A stretch of DNA of 32,000 nucleotides from Candidatus Saccharimonadota bacterium (GCA_016700375.1 CP065016.1:780001-812000), one strand, 5' to 3'; numbered from the stretch's first letter, positions 3,381 through 28,679 are shown. Made by a program: numbers and translations. The notes: generated by a model not told the origin, from the sequence alone.

Positions 3381-6149
3381 TTATGGGCGTTTTTTGCGAT
3401 TATTGTTATTTGGGGTTGCACCAGGCAAGACTGAAGCATGGCGGCTACGTTTCGTGGCCTGCTTCCGAGCTGTACGCGCACGCTTATCTCTTAGCCAGTG
3501 CACTGCTTTGCCAAGCCCGCGAAGGGCAACGTCCTCGTCATCCTCAATATATGCACCGACTACTTCCTGTCCTGCTTCTAAGGACGCTTCTTGATCGGCT
3601 CTATGTGTTGGACGGAGCAAACCGGGTCCCCGTAGCGCTGGATTTGTGCTTCCCGGTCCTGCTGGTGTAAGTCGCTCGGCATTAGTAGCAAATGGATCGG
3701 GCTGACCTACCTGAATAACAACGGCTGCCTTTTCTCTAAAGTTTCGACCAGGCGCTCCAGTGTCAGGATTTCTACCTTCCTGACCATATTCTTCAATAAA
3801 TCGTTGAGCAGCTTCTCGAGGGTCACCTTCTGTCTCCAAGATATCTCGTATGCTTACATTGTTCTCGCTATACCGGCGCGTTGCTGCATCATCACGCGGT
3901 ACATCACCGTCGCCGAATATACCGGCAGAAGTTATGAGTATTTTATCGCCTCTTTCAAGTGCCCGAACAGCGATTTCATGGCCATTTCGAGTGACATGAG
4001 CGACAAGGTCATCGCCTTCAAAGGCATCAGCTAACGTGCCGTCGCGGTAGACTGCAGCCATGCCATGACCCGCACGAGCTGCAACTAAATGAGGTTTCCC
4101 ATTTACCTCTATGATACGGGTGAGTACTCCTTCAGCATCATTTCGCTCACCATGCAAGGCAGTCGCATTCGCGCTACGCTGCATGGCTTCATGCAGCTGT
4201 GTCATAGCGTCTTCTATAGTACGGGGTTGGGGTTGGTTTTCAAGGTATAGGCGCGCTCTTTGTTGAGCGGCTTCGGCGGGGCTACGACCGCTTCTCACAT
4301 CGGCGTTTTTAAGTAAATTGTAAGCACTGTATATGCCTCGCGCATCATCAGCTCCACTAAAAGCATGTGGACTGAAATCTGTACGACTGAATGATTCCCT
4401 TGTGCGACGAAATGTTCTGCCCTGACCGGAGCGAATATCGAGTGGACGAGGTTTCATTACCTCGCCATACTGCAAGAGAATTGCAGATTTATCTGCGCCT
4501 GTTCTCCCTAAGGTGCAACATAATTCCGCTGCACGCTCGGCGGACTTTGCATCTGAACCATTTCCAAGCGCCGCCACCGTAAACACATCTCCATATTCAC
4601 GGAGAAGCTGGCTAGGCAAGTTCATGCTACGAGCGTCCCTGTCTTTTTGCTTATCACTTAAGGTGCCACCCGAAGCAAGAAGGACCATGTCCCCAGGCTG
4701 AAGCTCAACACTAAAGAAGCCTCCTTCATTTCCATCAACATGGTGCGGATGTCCGAAGCCATCAGCCATATACGTTCCAGTTTCTTGGGTTTTTCCTATA
4801 GGGGTTAGCTGTCCATTTCGCCAAAGCATGATAGGCGAGTTTCCAATGCTTCCTGTTATGAGGTAATCCTTCCCTTCTATGTGCTCAACCTTTGCAACAG
4901 TGGCAGACGAAACTCCGCCACTACCGTCACGAGGTAATGTTTCTTGGGTATGCATAAATGCCGCCTTCATCCGTGCCGCGGCCTCAGCAGGGCTCTCGGG
5001 TTGACCTTCTTCTTGAGCATAGAAGTCCCTTATAGCTTTTTCGGCTTGTCTGGTAGCGTTTTGTGCATTGCTTGTTTCGCTCAGCCCACCAAAAACAGCA
5101 TACAATCCGCGTTCATCTATGTGCCTATCTTCACCGCGAGGCGTACGCTCTTTTGCAACCGAACGAAGTGGGTGATTTAGTTTTCTTACTTCTGGGGTTT
5201 TTTTACGCTCCGATGCTTTCGGACTGTCTTGCGCTGGTTCAGGTTTTGTAGGCTCCGTTTGTTCCCCACCTTTTTTAGCAGCGGCTTCCGCTGCCTTTTT
5301 TCCAGCTTCGTTGTGCCCATATAGCCGGGCCCCGACGTCTTTCGGCAATACCGTTTCTGTCACATTGCCTGAAGCGTCTGTTTCCACTAACGTGTACTCG
5401 GCGTAGGGAGCACCACTTGGCGCAGTTTTTTCAGTCCTAGTCACGCAACCCGCAAGCGCATCAAGCTCCCCTTCTTCCTCTCGAGTCAGCAAGGACGGCT
5501 TCCCTTTTCCGGGGTGCCTTCTTGTCAGTAAATCTCTCACCCCGTCATATCCATCACCTGAGGTCTTGGTCTCCGGCGCAGACGCACCAGAAGTGGACGG
5601 TTTAGGATTGCCCGACCCAGTTGGGGGAGCATGCTTTTTTGAGTTAGTTGGACGACCGCTCCCGGTTCTTGCGGTGCCCCGAGGAGGCTCTGTGCCAACA
5701 GGTTTTGGCGCGGTCCAGCCCGAAGGAGTTGAACTACCTGTCTCTGTATTATCCTGTGGGCTCCACTGGCGCCTATAGTCCAAAAGTGCCTGCCCAACGG
5801 TAGGATTGAGTTCCTCCTCACGGGGCTTCCCGTCTTGGCCGGTTGTCGTGCGGAAAAATAAAGTTTGTGGCCCCATGACAACTTCATCGCTATCACTGGC
5901 TGCAGAACCATCCTCAATATACACCGTCTCGGTCCTGACTCCGGCTGCAAGTTTGTCTAGGGCTGCAAGGTCATCTGGTGGCTGGGCGCCTGTGCGAGCC
6001 CCATCCGCAACCCGAAGCATTGTAGCTTGCAGATCATCAACCAATTCGGGAGTGAATGGTCCGGCAAACCTGTCTGCAGGGTCAACGATAGGTCCGGCCT
6101 GGTCGGTCGGGTCTATTGCGGGTGTGATTCCTTCGCCTGGTGCTGCCAT
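3381..6149 (-). CDS. 922-aa hypothetical protein: disordered P/G/S/T/K-rich N-terminal third, two degenerate PP2C/SpoIIE-like modules, strongly basic C-terminal tail
   Basis: Uninterrupted 2.77-kb ORF. A PP2C-like motif order occurs twice (GLYAVFGG.. / ITGSIGNSPIMLWRNGQL / GDMVLLASGG / ADKSAILLQY, and again AARAGHGMAAVYRDGTL / GDKILITSAG / KAAVVIQV), with the usual metal-binding Asp residues replaced. The tail is ..RDKRARTARKQATKRSRH...NRKKRP. No signal peptide is evident. Confidence 0.7.
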   Translation of the reverse strand: MAAPGEGITPAIDPTDQAGPIVDPADRFAGPFTPELVDDLQATMLRVADGARTGAQPPDDLAALDKLAAGVRTETVYIEDGSAASDSDEVVMGPQTLFFRTTTGQDGKPREEELNPTVGQALLDYRRQWSPQDNTETGSSTPSGWTAPKPVGTEPPRGTARTGSGRPTNSKKHAPPTGSGNPKPSTSGASAPETKTSGDGYDGVRDLLTRRHPGKGKPSLLTREEEGELDALAGCVTRTEKTAPSGAPYAEYTLVETDASGNVTETVLPKDVGARLYGHNEAGKKAAEAAAKKGGEQTEPTKPEPAQDSPKASERKKTPEVRKLNHPLRSVAKERTPRGEDRHIDERGLYAVFGGLSETSNAQNATRQAEKAIRDFYAQEEGQPESPAEAAARMKAAFMHTQETLPRDGSGGVSSATVAKVEHIEGKDYLITGSIGNSPIMLWRNGQLTPIGKTQETGTYMADGFGHPHHVDGNEGGFFSVELQPGDMVLLASGGTLSDKQKDRDARSMNLPSQLLREYGDVFTVAALGNGSDAKSAERAAELCCTLGRTGADKSAILLQYGEVMKPRPLDIRSGQGRTFRRTRESFSRTDFSPHAFSGADDARGIYSAYNLLKNADVRSGRSPAEAAQQRARLYLENQPQPRTIEDAMTQLHEAMQRSANATALHGERNDAEGVLTRIIEVNGKPHLVAARAGHGMAAVYRDGTLADAFEGDDLVAHVTRNGHEIAVRALERGDKILITSAGIFGDGDVPRDDAATRRYSENNVSIRDILETEGDPREAAQRFIEEYGQEGRNPDTGAPGRNFREKAAVVIQVGQPDPFATNAERLTPAGPGSTNPALRGPGLLRPTHRADQEASLEAGQEVVGAYIEDDEDVALRGLGKAVHWLRDKRARTARKQATKRSRHASVLPGATPNNNNRKKRP

Positions 6150-14574: not shown

Positions 14575-15650
14575 GAGTTATAGGCAAAAACGTGTTGGTT
14601 TTCTCCCCTCGCTTCGTGTATAAAGGTACCAATTAACAAGCACTCGTTGGTGCTCACGAGACATGCCTCTATGGTACTTTAGTTTGGTTCGGATTTGGCT
14701 GTTCATGCCACCCTCAACATGGTTTGTGGTGCTTGGCAGTTCTGCGTGTGGTCGGTAGCTTGAACGAAGCGCATCATCTGTGACTTTATCGAGCTGACGG
14801 TAGGCACTACGGAGTCGTTCGTGGGTGTACCGCCAGCTCCTTTCTCTTGGTTTTGGGTAAGGTTTTACGGTTCGTTCGTTGACATAGTTTTGGTGCCGCT
14901 TGTACCAACGTCTTAGTCTTTGTTTCCAGTGCCTGGCATGTTTTCGTGTCCTAACATGGAGCAAATCTTTGGTGAGTACGAGCAGCTCTTTTCCTGCAAT
15001 TGACTCAGGATGCAGTGTCAGTTTTGTTTTTACATTAAGCCAGATATGGAATCGACAGCGCTGGACGATCGTACCAGGCCAACAGAGGGGAAGAGCCTTC
15101 AGGAGGCCTTTCTGGCCGTCACAAACAACGTAGGTAGGTGCAGGCAGTGAGGCGAGGAACGTGGCCCAGTATGTACTACTTTCGTATGGTACCCACATCC
15201 AGGCAATAACAAACATAGTCGTTCGGGCAATGAGGCAGACGTGGCCGCTAACACGGATGCCATCAACGATGACACAGTGATGACATTCACCCCTCAGCAC
15301 ACTCGGCACGGGCACGCCCCAGCACCAGGCAGTCTGGTCACGAAACGTTCGGCTAGCCGCAGCTAAGTCGTCCTGAGAATCCTTGCCGAGCAACCAAGAC
15401 ATGAATCCCTCAAACACAAACACTCGCCGTAAGTCTGGTCGTGGCTTTGTGGCTGTGAGGCTACACACAGGACACCTCCATCGCTGCTTCCCAGCACCTG
15501 TCTTGCCCCATTTCTGGAGCTTAGTTTTACACACACGACAATAGCGAAAACCTCTCTGTTTCATAGGTAAGTAATGTCTACCGACATTACTTATGAGTCA
15601 ATAACAGAGGTAAAAGTGGTGAAACACCAACACGAGGGTGCCTATAACTC
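14575..15650 (-). mobile_element. IS element copy 1 (1076 bp), no target-site duplication
   Basis: Co-linear with 22534..23609 (offset 7959) and, as far as I can read, identical to it. The terminal IRs are GAGTTATAGGCA(N4)CGTGTTGGT. The flanks cacattgg and cgtgtttg do not match. Confidence 0.9.
14578..15564 (-). CDS. DDE transposase with N-terminal CxxC..CxxC zinc ribbon and MULE/IS256-like core
   Basis: 328 aa with YCRVCKTKLQKWGKTGAGKQRWRCPVC, VIVDG, VVCDGQKGL...QRCRFH and TNHVEGGMNSQIR. The family assignment (IS256-like versus IS1-like) is uncertain. Confidence 0.88.
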   Translation of the reverse strand: MKQRGFRYCRVCKTKLQKWGKTGAGKQRWRCPVCSLTATKPRPDLRRVFVFEGFMSWLLGKDSQDDLAAASRTFRDQTAWCWGVPVPSVLRGECHHCVIVDGIRVSGHVCLIARTTMFVIAWMWVPYESSTYWATFLASLPAPTYVVCDGQKGLLKALPLCWPGTIVQRCRFHIWLNVKTKLTLHPESIAGKELLVLTKDLLHVRTRKHARHWKQRLRRWYKRHQNYVNERTVKPYPKPRERSWRYTHERLRSAYRQLDKVTDDALRSSYRPHAELPSTTNHVEGGMNSQIRTKLKYHRGMSREHQRVLVNWYLYTRSEGRKPTRFCL

Positions 15651-15880
15651 CGTGTTTGGTATATACTCCTCATCTGGAGTACTAAAGGGCGGCGATATAT
15701 GTGCTTGCCATACGTCCCTATCTAGTAATGAAGGGCTAGGAACGCTCTTTTGTGCTGCGTGTGTTGGGTTCATTTTTGTTTCATTAAATCCGATGTACAA
15801 TATAGCACAATATTTGCTAAAATGCAATTTTACACTATAAATTTTGTCTTTGGGGCAGGGTGGGGTGAAACGCGCCTCTG

Positions 15881-18800
15881 TTATTTTGACTTCCCGGGTG
15901 AAACCGGGACGTATTCGCGCCAGTGTTTGGGCTGAAGGTCGGCGAGGTTTGGGTCGGACAGGCAGCGAAGCAGCAAGCGGCCCGTTTCGGCATTGGTGAA
16001 AAGGGGAATATGGTTGTCTATGGCGAGGCGGCGCATGAGGTAGGCTTCGTCGCTTTTTTCTTCGCGTGAGGGAATGCTCACCATAAGGTCGAGTTTGTGG
16101 CTGCGAATGAGGTCGGCGAGGTTTGGTGTTTGTTTGCCCTGAACTTTATAGACTCGTTTGGTTTTTATGCCGTGTTCCTTCAGAAAGTCGTGCGTGCCGG
16201 GGGTAGTGTAGACGGTCCAGCCGCTTTCCGCCAGGCTACGAGCTTCCTCTATGAACTTGTACTTTTGCTCGTCGGCCAGGCTTATGAGCACACGCTTGCC
16301 CTCAATCTTCTGCTCGGTTGCGAGCCACGAGCGGTAAAAGGCAGTTTCTATCTCAGACCCAAAGCAGGCAACTTCTCCGGTAGAAGCCATTTCAACCCCT
16401 GCTACCGGGTCGGCGCCTTTCATACGGTTGTAAGAAAACTGCGGCGTTTTGACGCCCACGTGATCGAGGCTGAGCGTGAGGAATATTTCCGGGTGCGGCT
16501 GCCCAAGCATGGCTTCGGTCGCAATCTGAATAAAATTGTAGCCCGATACTTTCGACACAAACGGGAAAGAACGCGAGGCGCGCACGTTACACTCGATAAC
16601 CTTGAGTTCGTTGTCTTTGGCAATAAACTGAATGTTGAACGGCCCAGTTATGTCGAGGTTTTTTGCTACCTGCTTGGCGATGAGTTTGGCGCGTCGCACA
16701 GTTTCGAGGTACAGACGCTGGGCAGGGTAGACCACCGTGGCATCGCCCGAATGCACACCAGCATTCTCAACGTGTTCAGATATGGCATATATGACAAGAT
16801 GGCCGTTGAGGGCAACGCCGTCTATTTCGAGTTCTTTGGCGTTTTGGACAAACTGGGAAATCACCGTGGGGTGGTCGGGCGATAATTTCGTAGCCGCGGT
16901 AAGGTAGCGCTCCATTTCTGTTTCTGTGCGCACCACGCTCATTGCCCCGCCAGACAGCACATACGACGGCCGAATAAGCACCGGGTAGCCCACACGCACC
17001 GCAAATTTCTTTGCAGCCGACAGGGAAGTCACCTCTGTCCAATCTGGTTGGTCTATACCAAGTTGGTTCAGCATGGCGGAAAACTTCTGACGGTCTTCGG
17101 CCATATCAATCTTGAGCGGGGAAGTGCCAAGAATGGGGTAGCCGGCTTTGTGCAGGGGCAGGGCAAGGTTATTCGCAATCTGACCGCCCACCGACACAAC
17201 AATGCCACTTGGGTTTTCAAAGTCAGCAATGTCCTGGATGCGCTCAAACGTAAGGGCATCGAAGTACAGCCGGTCGGAGCGGTCGAAATCGGTCGAGACC
17301 GTTTCTGGGTTAGAGTTAACGATGATGGTTTTGTACCCGTTTTGGCGCAGTGTTTTGGCCGTATTTACCGCCGACCAGTCAAACTCAACTGATGAGCCAA
17401 TGGCATACGGACCCGAGCCGAGCACAATCGCCGTTTTGGCACCAAGCGGTTCAACATCGTGCACGGTACCATGATAAGTAAGGTACAAGTAGTTAGTTTC
17501 GGCGTCGAATTCCCCCGCAAGGGTGTCTATTTGCTTGATAACTGGCGTAATGCCGTGCTTGAGCCGAGTGCCGCGGACGGCCCGTTCTGTCTGGCCTGTC
17601 AGTGTGCCGATGACGCCGTCGCTAAAGCCCATTTTTTTGGCCTGACGCAAGCGTTCGGCAGTAAGTGAGGCACCAGCTAGCTGCCGCTCGGTGCCATAAA
17701 TGGCGGCAATGTGGTCAAGAAACCAACGGTCTATATGTGATGCTTCGTGGATTTGTTCGGTTGACACACCTTGCTTTAGAGCTTCGTAGATAGCAAACAG
17801 CCGACGGTCGGTCGGGTGCGTGACTTCATCCATGGGGTCAGAAATGTCGTACGGGTGCACACTCAGTCCGTGCGCGCCGATGTTCAGCATACGGGTTGCC
17901 TTCTGCAGCGCCTCTGGGAATGACCGGCCGAGCGCCATGACCTCGCCAACGCTTTTCATTTCGCTGCCTATGTGGTGGTCGCTGCTTTTGAGCTTTTGTA
18001 AATCCCAGCGCGGCATCTTTACGGCTAGATAATCGAGTGCCGGTTCGTAGAATGCCGACGTTTTGCCGGTGACGCTGTTTTTGATTTCGTACAGGCGCTT
18101 GCCAAGCATGAGTTTTGAGGCGACAAAGGCAAGCGGGTAGCCGGTAGCCTTGGAGGCAAGGGCGCTACTGCGACTTAGTCGGGCGTTGACCTCTATTACC
18201 CGGTATTCGCCATTCGAGGGGTGCAGGGCATACTGAATGTTACACTCACCGATGATGCCCAGGTGATTTATGGTGCGTATAGCCACCTCGCGCAGCATGT
18301 GGTATTCGTAATTCGTAAGGGTCTGCGACGGTGCCACCACAATGCTTTCGCCGGTGTGTACCCCCATGGGGTCAAAGTTTTCCATGTTGCACACGGTAAT
18401 GGTGTTGCCGTCGCAGTCGCGCACTACTTCGTACTCCACTTCTTTCCAGCCCACCAGATACTCCTCTATGAGCACTTGCGGTACGGCCGCCAATACTTCT
18501 TTGGCACGCGCTTTCAGCTGCGCCGGGGTATCTATGCGACCCGAGCCAAGCCCGCCAAGGCTAAAACCCGAACGCATCATGACTGGGTAGCCAAGCGTTT
18601 TCGCGGCAGTCAAGGCCGCTTCTACCGTTTCTGCCGTGAAACTGCGTGCAGTCTTGGTACCGATTTCGGCCAGAGCTTGCTTAAACAGTTCGCGGTCTTC
18701 GGTTGTTTCAATCACTTTTACCGGAGTACCCAGCACCCGAATGCCCAGTTTGTTCAAAATACCGCTTTTTTCAAGAGAAAGGCCAAGGTTGAGGGCGGTT

Positions 18801-21806: not shown

Positions 21807-21931
21807 TGGCGGAGGGGGAGGGATTCGCCTCGGGCCTTCTGCCTGACCACTCAGATTGCCACCGGCAATCTTCGGGCTTCGGGGCGGGGAGTGCCACAGG
21901 CACTCCCGTTCTCATCCCGTCCCAGGTCAAA
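21807..21931 (-). other. tRNA-Ser(CGA) 3'-end copy (T-arm and acceptor, 3-nt T-loop deletion) preceded by two perfect hairpins
   Basis: 21807-21827 matches 21966-21986 at 20/21, then continues with CCTCG after a missing AAC. Hairpins lie at 21854-21870 (7 bp) and 21887-21907 (9 bp). No 5' acceptor strand is present, so it is not a tRNA. Confidence 0.55.
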
Positions 21932-22412: not shown

Positions 22413-22489
22413 GCACCCGTAGCTCAGCTGGATAGAGCGTTGGCTTGCGGAGCCAAAGGTCGTAGGTTCGAATCCTGTCGGGTGTACCA
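22413..22489 (+). tRNA. tRNA-Arg (anticodon GCG), CCA encoded
   Basis: 77-nt cloverleaf with anticodon stem TTGGC/GCCAA and loop TTGCGGA. Confidence 0.9.
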
Positions 22490-22496
22490 AGAAAAG

Positions 22497-22521
22497 AGTC
22501 CATCGTAAGATGGGCTTTTTT
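22497..22521 (+). terminator. Rho-independent terminator after tRNA-Arg
   Basis: AGTCCATCgtaaGATGGGCTttttt. Confidence 0.75.
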
Positions 22522-22533
22522 CTTGATTATTCC

Positions 22534-23609
22534 GAGTTATAGGCAAAAACGTGTTGGTTTTCTCCCCTCGCTTCGTGTATAAAGGTACCAATTAACAAGC
22601 ACTCGTTGGTGCTCACGAGACATGCCTCTATGGTACTTTAGTTTGGTTCGGATTTGGCTGTTCATGCCACCCTCAACATGGTTTGTGGTGCTTGGCAGTT
22701 CTGCGTGTGGTCGGTAGCTTGAACGAAGCGCATCATCTGTGACTTTATCGAGCTGACGGTAGGCACTACGGAGTCGTTCGTGGGTGTACCGCCAGCTCCT
22801 TTCTCTTGGTTTTGGGTAAGGTTTTACGGTTCGTTCGTTGACATAGTTTTGGTGCCGCTTGTACCAACGTCTTAGTCTTTGTTTCCAGTGCCTGGCATGT
22901 TTTCGTGTCCTAACATGGAGCAAATCTTTGGTGAGTACGAGCAGCTCTTTTCCTGCAATTGACTCAGGATGCAGTGTCAGTTTTGTTTTTACATTAAGCC
23001 AGATATGGAATCGACAGCGCTGGACGATCGTACCAGGCCAACAGAGGGGAAGAGCCTTCAGGAGGCCTTTCTGGCCGTCACAAACAACGTAGGTAGGTGC
23101 AGGCAGTGAGGCGAGGAACGTGGCCCAGTATGTACTACTTTCGTATGGTACCCACATCCAGGCAATAACAAACATAGTCGTTCGGGCAATGAGGCAGACG
23201 TGGCCGCTAACACGGATGCCATCAACGATGACACAGTGATGACATTCACCCCTCAGCACACTCGGCACGGGCACGCCCCAGCACCAGGCAGTCTGGTCAC
23301 GAAACGTTCGGCTAGCCGCAGCTAAGTCGTCCTGAGAATCCTTGCCGAGCAACCAAGACATGAATCCCTCAAACACAAACACTCGCCGTAAGTCTGGTCG
23401 TGGCTTTGTGGCTGTGAGGCTACACACAGGACACCTCCATCGCTGCTTCCCAGCACCTGTCTTGCCCCATTTCTGGAGCTTAGTTTTACACACACGACAA
23501 TAGCGAAAACCTCTCTGTTTCATAGGTAAGTAATGTCTACCGACATTACTTATGAGTCAATAACAGAGGTAAAAGTGGTGAAACACCAACACGAGGGTGC
23601 CTATAACTC
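22534..23609 (-). mobile_element. IS element copy 2 (1076 bp) with 8-bp target-site duplication ATTATTCC
   Basis: Same sequence as 14575..15650. ATTATTCC is found at 22526-22533 and at 23610-23617. Confidence 0.92.
22537..23523 (-). CDS. DDE transposase (identical to the 14578..15564 product)
   Basis: The 328-aa translations in the track are identical. Confidence 0.88.
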   Translation of the reverse strand: MKQRGFRYCRVCKTKLQKWGKTGAGKQRWRCPVCSLTATKPRPDLRRVFVFEGFMSWLLGKDSQDDLAAASRTFRDQTAWCWGVPVPSVLRGECHHCVIVDGIRVSGHVCLIARTTMFVIAWMWVPYESSTYWATFLASLPAPTYVVCDGQKGLLKALPLCWPGTIVQRCRFHIWLNVKTKLTLHPESIAGKELLVLTKDLLHVRTRKHARHWKQRLRRWYKRHQNYVNERTVKPYPKPRERSWRYTHERLRSAYRQLDKVTDDALRSSYRPHAELPSTTNHVEGGMNSQIRTKLKYHRGMSREHQRVLVNWYLYTRSEGRKPTRFCL

Positions 23610-23655
23610 ATTATTCCGGAGGTTTGGGGCTACGACCAACGAACGAAGTGAGTGT

Positions 23656-23746
23656 AGGTCGTAGGTTCGTACAGGAATGAGCGTACAGGTGCTTGCACCG
23701 AAAAGCGAGTTCCGTGCAAGCGTAGCACATCCTGGCGGGTGTAGCA
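23656..23746 (+). other. tRNA-Arg 3'-half copy split in the T-loop by a 59-nt insert
   Basis: AGGTCGTAGGTTCG (14/14 against 22457-22470), then 59 nt, then ATCCTGGCGGGTGTAGCA (16/18 against 22472-22489). The insert contains the stem GCTTGCAC/GTGCAAGC. Confidence 0.6.
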
Positions 23747-25641: not shown

Positions 25642-25712
25642 TACAAACTGTGTATGCCCCGAAGGGGTATATGGAATTTGTATGCTGAGTGAGCGGGTGC
25701 ACGAGCCTTCCT

Positions 25713-25822
25713 AGGTTCGGCGGACGAGGAACGCAGCTACAAACGTGCTTGCATGTTTATAGCGAGTACCACAGGGAGGAGGGCGAGCTGGAAGCTCGCC
25801 CGATATCCCTCGCTCTCCGCCA
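25713..25822 (+). repeat. tRNA-Ser-3'-end-like structured module, copy A
   Basis: It begins AGGTTCG and ends ATCCCTCGCTCTCCGCCAA. It is 105/109 identical to copy B. Confidence 0.8.
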
Positions 25823-25953: not shown

Positions 25954-26046
25954 GGAGAGGTACCCAAGTGGCTGAAGGGGACGGTTTGCTAAATCGTTAG
26001 AGGGGCGAGAGTCCCTGCGAGGGTTCGAATCCCTCTCTCTCCGCCA
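25954..26046 (+). tRNA. tRNA-Ser (anticodon GCU), CCA encoded
   Basis: 93-nt cloverleaf with anticodon loop TTGCTAA and a long variable arm. Confidence 0.92.
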
Positions 26047-26053
26047 AGTAAAT

Positions 26054-26084
26054 AGAGTCTGCTCGAAAGGGTAGGCTCTTTTTA
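26054..26084 (+). terminator. Terminator hairpin after tRNA-Ser(GCU)
   Basis: AGAGTCTGC..GTAGGCTCT followed by ttttt. Confidence 0.7.
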
Positions 26085-26116
26085 CTTGGCCTGAGATGGG
26101 GTGAGAACACTCGCCC

Positions 26117-26228
26117 GAGGGTTCGGCGGACGAGGAACGCAGCTATAAACGTGCTTGCATGTTTATAGCGAGTACCGCAGAGAGGAGGGCGAGCTGGAAG
26201 CTCGCCCGATATCCCTCTCTCTCCGCCA
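26117..26228 (+). repeat. tRNA-Ser-3'-end-like structured module, copy B
   Basis: It begins GAGGGTTCG and ends ATCCCTCTCTCTCCGCCA, which is identical over 18 nt to the 3' end of tRNA-Ser(GCU). Confidence 0.8.
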
Positions 26229-26235
26229 AAGAAAT

Positions 26236-26270
26236 AGAGTCTGGCTGAAAAAGCTAGGCTCTCTTTCTTT
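26236..26270 (+). terminator. Diverged second copy of the tRNA-Ser(GCU) terminator hairpin
   Basis: AGAGTCTGGC-tgaaaaa-GCTAGGCTCT followed by ctttcttt. Compare 26054-26084. Confidence 0.5.
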
Positions 26271-26322
26271 GATATAGGGATTGATTCGAACGCGAGCGCC
26301 AGTGGCGCTCAGCCGCACAGGG

Positions 26323-27718: not shown

Positions 27719-28679
27719 TGTTAGAAAACCTCGCGTTGTTTAACTTTTCCAGCTTCCTTCATAGGCCGCTCGTACTGGTAAAAGTACTCACATAGTCGCT
27801 CGAGCGGCGTCGCCTTGTCAATGCCTTTGTGTGGGCGTACACAGTTGTAGTAATTCACAAACCTGGTAAGGGCTTTGGCTCGCTCCTCACGACTGTTAAA
27901 TACCTCGGCGTTATGCCAGCTCTCCATTAGTGTTCGGATGGCTCGTTCGGCTTTGCCATTCGTCTGCGGACACTTCACTTTGGTGAACTTCTGGGTGATG
28001 CCAGCCTCGCCACAGGCTTTCATGAAAGCATGTTCACCGTAACGGCCTTTGTACTCGGTGCCATTGTCGGTTAAGATTCGTTCAATACCATAGGGGCATT
28101 GAGCCAGTACAGTACTGAGGAAATCCGCGCTACTGAACATGCTCTTGTCGGGGTAGATACCAACGTACAGCTCTCTTGAGTAGTCATCAATAGCCACAAA
28201 CAGATATTCATGGCCGTCCAGCTTCGTTTCGCCCGTAAGTAGTGGTAGACGTTTAGTATCCATATGCAACATCTCGCCTGGATAGTCTTTCTCGTAACGT
28301 TTGGCAGTCCGGGCTAGTTTATCTTGGATTGATCGCTCAATTTTGCCCAGCCGCTTTAAGCCGTACTCCAGGCATTGGTAGCGTTTGTTAGTACTGACGT
28401 GCAGGCTGTAGTCATCCCGCCGAGCCCGAGTGAGGATCTTTTGTATAGTGGGGTAGGACACCCCATATTTGGCAATGAGATCTTTCTTACGTAAGTTGAG
28501 GACAAAATAATCCTCTGCCAATGCTTTACGTTGAAACGGCATGAGCCGTGTTCGTTTATGTACTACCATAGTGGTAGCCTCCTCTCGTTGGGTTAGTTAG
28601 TTGGTTGTACTCTAACTTTTACCATGGAGGAGGCTACTTTGGTTGTCTAGAAAGTTAAATAACGCTCGGGGATTTTACA
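27719..28679 (-). mobile_element. IS481-family insertion sequence (961 bp) with 7-bp TSD TCTAACC
   Basis: The ends are TGT...ACA. The imperfect ~29-bp IRs share GCGTT(G/A)TTTAACTTT. TCTAACC is found at 27712-27718 and 28680-28686. Confidence 0.85.
27721..28569 (-). CDS. IS481-family DDE (rve-type integrase core) transposase
   Basis: 282 aa with an N-terminal HTH, then HMDTK, AIDDYSR, LTDNGTEY and PQTNGKAER. Confidence 0.9.
   Translation of the reverse strand: MVVHKRTRLMPFQRKALAEDYFVLNLRKKDLIAKYGVSYPTIQKILTRARRDDYSLHVSTNKRYQCLEYGLKRLGKIERSIQDKLARTAKRYEKDYPGEMLHMDTKRLPLLTGETKLDGHEYLFVAIDDYSRELYVGIYPDKSMFSSADFLSTVLAQCPYGIERILTDNGTEYKGRYGEHAFMKACGEAGITQKFTKVKCPQTNGKAERAIRTLMESWHNAEVFNSREERAKALTRFVNYYNCVRPHKGIDKATPLERLCEYFYQYERPMKEAGKVKQREVF

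Follow-up and report, generated by a model that had tools for sequence, protein, structure and literature searches.

A small structured module of RtT-like architecture downstream of a tRNA-Arg gene in Candidatus Saccharimonadota

The RtT RNA of Escherichia coli arises by processing of the tyrT operon transcript; it may be linked to the stringent response, and it has no established mechanism (PMC4986893; 10.1101/2024.07.17.603846). In Pasteurellaceae, expression is reported for Rfam RtT members that sit beside tRNA-Asn and tRNA-Lys (PMC4986893), and the tyrT-rttR region was found enriched in a mobilome DNA preparation (10.1101/2024.07.17.603846). Here we describe an element with the same building plan in a 32,000-nt stretch of the genome of a Candidatus Saccharimonadota bacterium (GCA_016700375.1, CP065016.1:780001-812000), which is called the window below. 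The element, a module at 23618-23746 downstream of a tRNA-Arg(GCG) gene, carries copies of parts of that tRNA on both sides of a 59-nt insert.

In the E. coli K-12 tyrT-tyrV locus, one RtT unit lies in the spacer and three follow tyrV; annotation places the 3' end of rttR RNA on the CCA of the first repeat, and RtT copies stand at 1 to 14 places per E. coli genome. The RtT consensus reads GgGa-aGGAUGAGAAc-CUUCGacc-aAGGUuCG-[insert]-...GCGaAGC...-AAUCCuuCcCccaCCACCA, and its closing stem is formed by the 5' arm with the tRNA-Tyr-derived tail. RtT resembles the modules described here in its place 3' of a tRNA gene on the same strand, in forming tandem arrays, in ending each unit with a copy of the 3'-terminal ~18-19 nt of the tRNA including CCA, and, in the folds of well-formed modules, in a predicted pairing of the 5' arm with that tail. 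Short motifs are also shared: RtT carries GGATGAGAAC and then ..AAGGTTCG, GCGAAGC or GCGCAGC mini-hairpins before the tail, and AATCC followed by the 3' end of tRNA-Tyr. The motif GGATGAGAAC is found exactly in two sister modules of the window (21918-21909 on the minus strand and 26099-26108) and in the related loci L027, L060 and L067; the Arg module of the window has GGAGGTTTGGGGC...GGTTCG in place of GGATGAGAAC...GGTTCG. RtT differs in having no counterpart to the 59-nt core of the Arg module and in its enterobacterial host, whereas the modules belong to Saccharimonadales of the Candidate Phyla Radiation (CPR), use several interchangeable cores and stand behind tRNAs of many identities.

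The preliminary description of the locus, made from the sequence alone, did not recognise this layout as that of RtT. We class the element as RtT-like in architecture and not as a member of the Rfam family RF00391, of which the gathering threshold is 45 bits. Over the whole window only the tRNAs reached an Rfam threshold. The closest approach of the RtT model was a sister module behind tRNA-Ser (26079-26228) with 19.2 bits, below the 45 required, and thirteen other module-bearing loci gave no RF00391 match.

The module behind tRNA-Arg(GCG)

The features of the Arg locus are as follows.

22413-22489, plus strand: tRNA-Arg(GCG), source of the copied 3' part (ARAGORN; Rfam tRNA model, 67.1 bits)
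22490-22525, plus strand: terminator hairpin and T-tract directly 3' of tRNA-Arg, AGAAAAGAGTCCATCGTAAGATGGGCTTTTTTCTTG (by sequence; same hairpin in the related contig L003)
22526-23617, no strand assigned: IS256/Mutator-type insertion sequence (IS) including its target duplications, between tRNA-Arg and module (by sequence)
23616-23629, plus strand: 5' arm CCGGAGG, T-stem-5'-like and able to pair with CCT..CGG of the tail, then the T-loop-like TTTGG (5' arms of 20+ homologues, fold of L003)
23630-23664, plus strand: helix P2, CTACGACC (23630-23637) with GGTCGTAG (23657-23664), 19-nt loop (by folds)
23656-23669, plus strand: exact copy of tRNA-Arg positions 44-57, AGGTCGTAGGTTCG (14/14 match)
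23669-23717, plus strand: core hairpin with basal GTAC/GTGC, bulged A, GGAAT/GTTCC, GA-rich internal loop and apical GGTG-CTTG-CACC (alignment A1)
23718-23728, plus strand: nearly invariant linker AAGCGTAGCAC with the mini-hairpin GCGTAGC at 23720-23726 (invariant columns of A1)
23729-23746, plus strand: tail, a 16/18 copy of tRNA-Arg positions 59-76 with CCA changed to GCA (sequence match)

Both copied pieces reported in the preliminary description were confirmed. Within the window the 14-mer AGGTCGTAGGTTCG has two exact occurrences, one inside tRNA-Arg (22457-22470) and one at 23656-23669, and shuffled sequences are expected to hold it 0.00 times. Comparison of ATCCTGTCGGGTGTACCA with 23729-23746 gave the claimed 16/18 identity, with mismatches T to G at 23735 and C to G at 23744; tail matches with up to 3 mismatches have an expectation of 0.02, and 0/100 shuffles gave one with 2. 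The separation of the two pieces by 59 nt (23670-23728), with the break after TTCG and before ATCC, is likewise correct. In L003 the tail is identical to its tRNA in 18/18 positions, CCA included. The T-arm sequences of tRNAs are generally alike, and the similarity might be one of chance or of a single local duplication with a random insertion. This explanation is refuted by the expectations of 0.02 and 0.00, by the 18/18 tail of the orthologue in L003 and by 23 independent loci with the same core (see below), and we attach practically no probability to it.

The tRNA 3' repeat is not contiguous but interrupted by 59 conserved nt, and the preliminary description had seen in this a copied T-arm split by an insert. 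The copies themselves stand. The 14-mer is more than the 5' half of a T-arm, being a strand of helix P2; in many homologues only GGTTCG stands at the 14-mer site, and the sole tRNA-derived piece that is universal across homologues is positions 59-76.

The IS proper covers 22534-23609 (1076 bp) and is bordered by the 11-bp inverted repeats GAGTTATAGGC and GCCTATAACTC, with the 8-bp target duplication ATTATTCC at 22526-22533 and 23610-23617; its open reading frame (ORF) at 22537-23523 on the minus strand matches Transposase_mut. A second IS is indicated elsewhere in the window by an ORF at 27721-28569 (minus strand) with an rve integrase core domain of the IS3/IS481 transposase type. With the first IS and one copy of the duplication removed, the 14-mer begins 82 nt after the tRNA, in agreement with the ~82 nt estimated before. 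The IS is missing from L003, which shows the IS-free order directly: tRNA-Arg, terminator, module, the module's own terminator and a second module. The L003 module begins 36+ nt past the tRNA-Arg terminator; in the window a terminator/promoter scan placed the hairpin of that terminator at 22500-22513. The syntenic loci, which were fetched through a ComF-like protein, all come from metagenome-assembled genomes of Candidatus Saccharimonadales/Saccharibacteria.

ARAGORN and the Rfam tRNA model agreed on four tRNA genes in the window. The minus strand carries one, tRNA-Ser(CGA), and the plus strand three, tRNA-Arg(GCG), tRNA-Ser(TGA) and tRNA-Ser(GCT). Only these true tRNAs were detected by the two methods, and the Arg module was not recognised as a tRNA or a pseudogene.

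In the window copy both the module's own terminator and the units that would follow it are gone, and the base of its P2 reads GGGGC where relatives have GAACC; L003 shows the intact form. It is probably a decaying, inactive copy, because the IS has cut it off from the tRNA promoter, the tail carries two mutations including one in CCA, the terminator and the array are gone, and P2 is weak.

A conserved core behind several tRNA identities

The 59-nt core is a well-supported structured RNA motif which is absent from Rfam. In alignment A1, composed of 16 non-redundant core sequences without gaps, 98.4% of the proposed pairs are formed and 8/16 pairs show changes on both sides. None of 500 column shuffles was as good (0/500), and controls in which the fold was slid along the alignment gave only 27-55% pairing. 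Compensatory changes are already evident when the window, L003 and L025 are compared. The GA-rich internal loop holds two Watson-Crick pairs. One U-G pair is conserved, and the apical tetraloop is exchanged among CTTG, CTCG and TTTA, and from AAAG to TTCG in L034; judged from the aligned sequences, these features fit a selection on the tRNA-carrying strand. Model R1 gave the window copy a score of 100.8 bits.

Across homologues the linker reads AAGCGNAGCGC, nearly invariant, with the mini-hairpin consensus GCGNAGC, and this mini-hairpin is enriched just before the tail, both in every module class and in E. coli RtT. The unpaired bases of core and linker together are nearly invariant across tRNA contexts and environments.

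A different stem had been proposed before for the insert, GCTTGCAC with GTGCAAGC (23691-23698 and 23714-23721). It can be formed in the window copy, and as a conserved stem it did not hold: the two segments are complementary in most of the 16 homologues, they show no compensatory change and do no better than shuffles, and the stem is mutually exclusive with the helices supported by covariation. An equivalent loop-tail pseudoknot was rejected on the same observation of conserved complementarity with no covariation. The 9-mer GTGCTTGCA, earlier noted as shared with the modules behind tRNA-Ser, corresponds to the top of the apical CTTG hairpin. Homologues have other sequences in this apical stem (GGAGCTTGCTCC, GAAGCTTGCTTC and others), and the identity is therefore incidental; with 1 mismatch allowed 18 matches were counted where 11.8 are expected.

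The 5' strand of helix P2 is antisense to the variable loop and the T-stem 5' strand of the tRNA; in homologues an upstream GAACC pairs with the GGTTCG ahead of the core, and in Arg(GCG), Asn and Asp examples the helix is extended, comprising a copy of the variable loop and T-stem 5' strand plus an antisense copy. The equivalents in L020, L057, L061, L076 and L059 use different, tRNA-matched sequences. Upstream of P2 lies a T-stem-5'-like strand followed by the pentamer T-N-N-G-A (TTCGA, TTTGA, TGAGA). Both the 5' arms and the P2 extensions change to match each tRNA. From these sequences the module can be read as a T-arm joined to the acceptor 3' strand, both of the neighbouring tRNA, in which ~100 nt are inserted between positions 58 and 59.

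Two groups of known structures are comparable in this respect. The tRNA-like domain of tmRNA and the tRNA-like structures of plant viruses also present an acceptor/T-stem mimic ending in CCA within a larger RNA, but their acceptor stem and T-loop are complete and they are aminoacylated, whereas in the modules only part of the acceptor strand is paired and most of the T-loop is replaced. Non-canonical T-loop introns of archaeal tRNAs and split tRNA genes show an interruption at the same T-loop positions 58/59. They differ from the module, whose host is bacterial, which lacks the 5' two-thirds of the tRNA, and which has a complete tRNA gene just upstream. An archaeal-type intron was among the readings rejected, with the bulge-helix-bulge motif sought by eye alone. 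No ribozyme, hammerhead included, was matched in Rfam at E<=10.

The preliminary description had argued for a mechanism rather than a one-off duplication, and this was borne out by the occurrence of the same core behind at least five tRNA identities, with other core classes behind the three tRNA-Ser genes of the window. Metagenomes were scanned with the pattern GGTTCGNNCAGG-N(20-50)-GCAAGCGNAGCNNATC, which required ATC after the core. Twenty-four loci were obtained, one of which is a chance match in coding DNA, leaving 23 real ones. There the core follows tRNA-Arg (GCG, TCG, CCT, CCG), Asp, Asn, Tyr and Ser(TGA). Among the 13 loci with a visible tRNA, 8 have a tail that copies positions 59-76 of the adjacent tRNA exactly (18/18), and the remaining ones have degenerate tails or the tail of another tRNA (L066, L073). 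Two modules from the same sample that stand behind different tRNAs, L056 and L058, have scaffolds ~96% identical (counted by eye), and their arms and tails differ. The same pattern gave 0 matches in viral contigs, a looser second pattern gave 15 there which were all chance matches in coding DNA, and blastn found nothing in phage or plasmid collections; an origin from phages or plasmids was rejected on these results.

The wider claim, that tRNAs in general carry such copies, failed. By a strict criterion a copy follows 6/17 of the tRNA-Arg(GCG) genes at syntenic loci and 9/53 of the tRNA-Ser genes. Bystander tRNAs of those contigs, 15 of which are listed, have no downstream copy (0/15); they are tRNAs for Thr, Gly, Val, Lys, Trp, Met and Pro and include one of three distinct tRNA-Asp. 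In most of the bystanders the T-loop is not TTCGAAT. Because few tRNAs are compared and the metagenome pattern prescribed ATC after the core, an association of the modules with the T-loop TTCGAAT is only suggestive.

The combination of a near-constant scaffold, an 18-nt variable tail reprogrammed for each tRNA and a terminator would also fit the layout of a guide RNA, comparable to a TnpB omega-RNA or a Cas12 guide, whose protein is encoded elsewhere and which directs homing or regulation at the tRNA gene; the modules even lie 70-80 nt downstream of the matching site. We hold this to be quite improbable. No TnpB, IscB, Cas or transposase gene adjoins the modules, the first 5-10 nt of the supposed guide are paired with the module's 5' arm in well-formed copies, and the only IS at this place is the unrelated IS256-type insertion. 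Near the 13 metagenome loci, N-terminal inspection (no Pfam scan; the window neighbours were scanned) revealed no TnpB, transposase or integrase, and the ORFs there look like ordinary genes, on which the related idea of a transposon end was also dropped.

Arrays, reshuffled units and the RNA-repair cassette

Besides the Arg module, the window contains the following sister modules.

25684-25822, plus strand: module after tRNA-Ser(TGA), 'S-long' class (by sequence and fold)
26090-26228, plus strand: module after tRNA-Ser(GCT) with an 18/18 tail, the best sub-threshold match of Rfam RtT (19.2 bits)
26274-26316, plus strand: 5' part of a further, truncated module, GGGATTGATTCGAAC and a GCC-AGT-GGC hairpin, complete in L001 (by sequence)
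21807-21927, minus strand: module after tRNA-Ser(CGA), 'S4' class, with GGGATGAGAAC, two hairpins and the tail CGAATCCC, 17/18 (by sequence and fold)

At least three further classes (S-long, S4 and B) follow tRNA-Ser or tRNA-Arg in the syntenic genomes, with the 5' motif and the tail in common and different cores. Their hairpins also change in a compensatory manner between genomes, for example GGGAGTGCC-TGT-GGCACTCCC versus GCCAGTGCC-GGT-GGCACTGGC, and S4 homologues with compensatory stems were found in L002, L029 and L030. A class is not bound to one tRNA identity: an S-long-like core stands at Arg in L027 and the A1 core at Ser in L067. In L002 a MITE-like (miniature inverted-repeat transposable element) insertion of ~190 bp at 5590-5778 lies inside the module after tRNA-Ser(TGA), with terminal inverted repeats CCCCTTGCATAAATAACC and the duplication CTAAGG.

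Arrays comprise one to three units. L003 has A1', A2 and a partial third unit, L030 and L020 have 2-3, and the Arg locus of the window keeps one. The order of the units, each made of terminator, module and tail, is permuted after tRNA-Ser(GCT) between the window and L001. In L034 (7795-9940) two diverged Arg-tailed modules, each after a terminator and differing in the apical loop (AAAG versus TTCG), flank a 2.1-kb block of three small ORFs. A chimera was found in L016 (60-205), composed of a tRNA-Ser-type 5' part (ATGAGAACCCT...AGGGTTC) and a tRNA-Arg-type tail (AATCCTGCCGGGTGTACCA), and L014 has a true tRNA-Arg at the matching place. The permuted order, the flanking pair and the chimera would fit a recombination between identical tails. 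Decayed copies are represented by the window copy, by A2 of L003 with a 14-nt deletion relative to L072, and by L071.

Each module has its own terminator of distinct sequence, and promoter prediction gave none for the modules of the window. The terminator stems after tRNAs and modules (22487-22525, 26044-26089 and 26226-26270 in the window, and at many loci) are extended by pairing of an A-tract with the T-tract, and the extended stems also pair CCA with a downstream TGG (CCAAATAAAA...TTTTATTTGG); as a sequence pattern this suggests a shared 3'-end processing signal. In L019 (13230-13442, complete genome CP064992.1) the 3' part of tRNA-Arg(GCG) itself is aberrant (GGTTCGAAGCTGTTGGTGTACC) and pairs poorly with the 5' strand; the canonical tail, ATCCTGCCTGGGTGTACCA, comes ~140 nt further downstream and closes a B-class module.

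Much of this would also be seen if the units were selfish or neutral DNA cassettes spreading and shuffling at tRNA 3' ends through homologous or site-specific recombination. The helices would then sequester the tRNA pieces, which could otherwise interfere with the folding of the co-transcribed tRNA, or serve a single-stranded DNA intermediate, and the RNA would have no function of its own. The patchy presence among syntenic genomes (the 6/17 and 9/53 loci above), the arrays with permuted unit order, the decayed copies, the chimeras (L016, and L066 and L073 with another tRNA's tail), the variable number of RtT places in E. coli and the recovery of tyrT-rttR in the mobilome preparation (10.1101/2024.07.17.603846) all speak for it. 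Mere sequestration does not explain the near-invariant unpaired bases of core and linker, each unit retains a terminator that looks functional and has its own sequence, the ORFs inspected around the units at the metagenome loci include no recombinase, and phage, plasmid and viral collections hold no copy. This explanation is possible and is the one we take most seriously after our own, yet we regard it as doubtful.

Several relatives (L003, L001, L014, L009 and L012) carry an RNA-repair cassette in which rsr (Ro60/TROVE) and a conserved 77-aa gene are accompanied by either rtcB or a Pnkp-like kinase-phosphatase-ligase. In L003 and L014 the cassette begins where the module array of tRNA-Arg ends; L003, L001 and L014 share the order Arg modules, conserved non-coding block, rsr, 77-aa gene and rtcB. 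The more distant rsr loci have the Pnkp-like ligase instead, and neither tRNA-Arg nor a module is nearby. The corresponding 4.2 kb of L003 (1863-6102) is missing from the window between 23746 and 23811, the break being exactly at the end of the module tail. A non-coding block of ~300 nt lies directly upstream of rsr at all rsr loci (L003 5525-5820, L009 9700-9990, L012 9700-9990, L014 440-740), preceded by an AT-rich promoter-like stretch, and the L012 copy holds an intact T-arm-like CTGGTTCGAATCCAG. These blocks have no match to Rfam YrlA; they are probably Y RNAs.

Bacterial YrlA Y RNAs mimic tRNA (PMC4201824), and some Arg modules lie ~590 nt upstream of rsr-rtcB, in the order tRNA-Arg, modules, rsr, 77-aa gene and rtcB of L003, L001 and L014. 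The module might accordingly be taken for a Y RNA of the Ro60 orthologue Rsr. YrlA RNAs (RF02553) are alike in being tRNA-mimicking non-coding RNAs, but in YrlA the T-arm is intact, a D-arm is present, the acceptor-like stem is closed and the ends lie in the Ro-binding helix, whereas the module has its insertion in the T-loop region and ends with the tRNA's own CCA end. The YrlA model matched only the true tRNA-Arg (18.8 bits) and nothing on the module. The rsr loci L009 and L012 lack tRNA-Arg and modules, modules stand at many tRNAs with no rsr nearby, and the separate ~300-nt block is the better candidate. With rsr and modules each occurring without the other, the Y RNA idea was rejected, and its remaining probability is very small.

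A further explanation starts from the direct repeat of the tRNA 3' end, which is also the mark of a tRNA-integrating element: the module would be an attL/attR repeat, or the remnant of a cis-mobilisable element, after the interior of an island was deleted. Such att repeats are alike in placing a second tRNA 3'-end copy downstream and in being used in rearrangements. The rsr-rtcB block of 4.2 kb right after the L003 array and absent from the window, and the aberrant tRNA-proximal 3' end of L019 with the canonical one 140 nt downstream, would suit this origin. So would L021, where a 540-aa ORF (14824-16445) abuts the tRNA-Arg 3' end on the opposite strand and has an N-terminus like that of large serine recombinases (no Pfam scan); by its sequence, this ORF may indicate that mobile DNA uses tRNA-Arg in some relatives. 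The modules differ from att repeats in several points. No integrase or recombinase lies within or beside the repeats, the window holding only the terminator and the IS256-type transposase there, and none was found in L003 or at the 13 metagenome loci. The element would measure merely ~150-190 bp, the repeat is interrupted by a strongly covarying hairpin of RNA type including G-U pairs, the same scaffold recurs at five or more unrelated tRNA identities, and viral, phage and plasmid collections do not contain it. We therefore consider an att remnant improbable.

Proposed maturation, spread and meaning of the modules

We favour the explanation that the window holds one Arg-type copy from a family of small structured RNA modules, whose place in Saccharimonadales is immediately 3' of tRNA genes. 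A complete unit would be composed of a terminator, the 5' arm, P2 (GAACC..GGTTC), a class-specific core, a copy of tRNA positions 59-76 ending in CCA, and its own terminator; in the Arg type the core would be the 49-nt hairpin together with the 11-nt linker and its GCGNAGC mini-hairpin. The 5' arm is predicted to pair with the tail, which would give a truncated acceptor/T-stem minihelix of the tRNA with a large insertion at T-loop positions 58/59. The unit would be transcribed through read-through from the tRNA promoter, and the tRNA-identical tail and the terminator would allow the tRNA 3'-maturation machinery to produce a ...NCCA end, as for RtT. The mature RNA may then act as a tRNA-specific mimic of the top half, binding a protein through the invariant core and linker. 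Units of terminator, body and tail would multiply and move via recombination of identical tails and tRNA 3' ends, and such recombination would place them right after a tRNA and keep the tails matched. A co-transcribed tRNA-minihelix mimic which is matured like a tRNA is our best guess for the putative function.

Several points weigh against this reading. Pairing of the 5' arm with the tail is present in the folds of L003, L060, E. coli RtT and the Ser modules and is weak in the window copy; in an own-versus-others permutation test with RNAduplex the pairing was not specific across the A1 family, and a specific pairing of each arm with its own tail was given up for that family. Sequence homology of the Arg module to RtT was likewise rejected: RF00391 gave no match on 23618-23746 at E<=10, Smith-Waterman comparison with E. 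coli RtT, set against shuffles, yielded z <1 for the Arg copies (up to 4.4 for modules with GGATGAGAAC), and model R1 scored the E. coli locus at no more than 12.6 bits (E 0.8); architecture and short motifs alone are shared. Since RtT has no established mechanism, the analogy would supply an architecture and not a mechanism. Patchy presence, decay and arrays are equally expected of selfish or neutral DNA repeats, the conserved hairpins could serve a step of single-stranded DNA instead of RNA, and the matching of the arms to a new tRNA is left unexplained. With these points considered, we lean modestly towards the whole package, that is an RNA of RtT architecture, read-through transcription, CCA maturation, a putative minihelix mimic and spread by tail recombination.

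A bolder extension is that the modules form a superfamily of 'programmable' tRNA-specific RNAs with RtT as one branch, in which a protein-binding scaffold is refitted for each tRNA as a top-half decoy or sensor, for example against tRNA-acting enzymes or toxins, and the units move as cassettes via recombination at tRNA 3' ends. Among the tRNase toxins, colicin D attacks the tRNA-Arg isoacceptors and colicin E5 the tRNAs for Tyr, His, Asn and Asp. The tRNA identities carrying modules (all four Arg isoacceptors; Tyr, Asn and Asp; Ser) overlap with these types of target, and the Rsr-RtcB cassette abuts the Arg array in some relatives. The overlap seen for the A1-carrying tRNAs (L055-L078) may be a coincidence or a sampling bias, given a pattern that forced ATC, and we think the extension unlikely, if worth stating.

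Since 1991 RtT has stood as an orphan among RNAs, with no mechanism to its name and with enterobacterial tRNA operons as its known setting. The same building plan in Saccharibacteria, with interchangeable cores, many tRNAs and strong covariation, turns it into a family that can be studied comparatively. The modules are also a source of tRNA-like fragments able to confuse the annotation of tRNAs, att sites and islands in CPR genomes.

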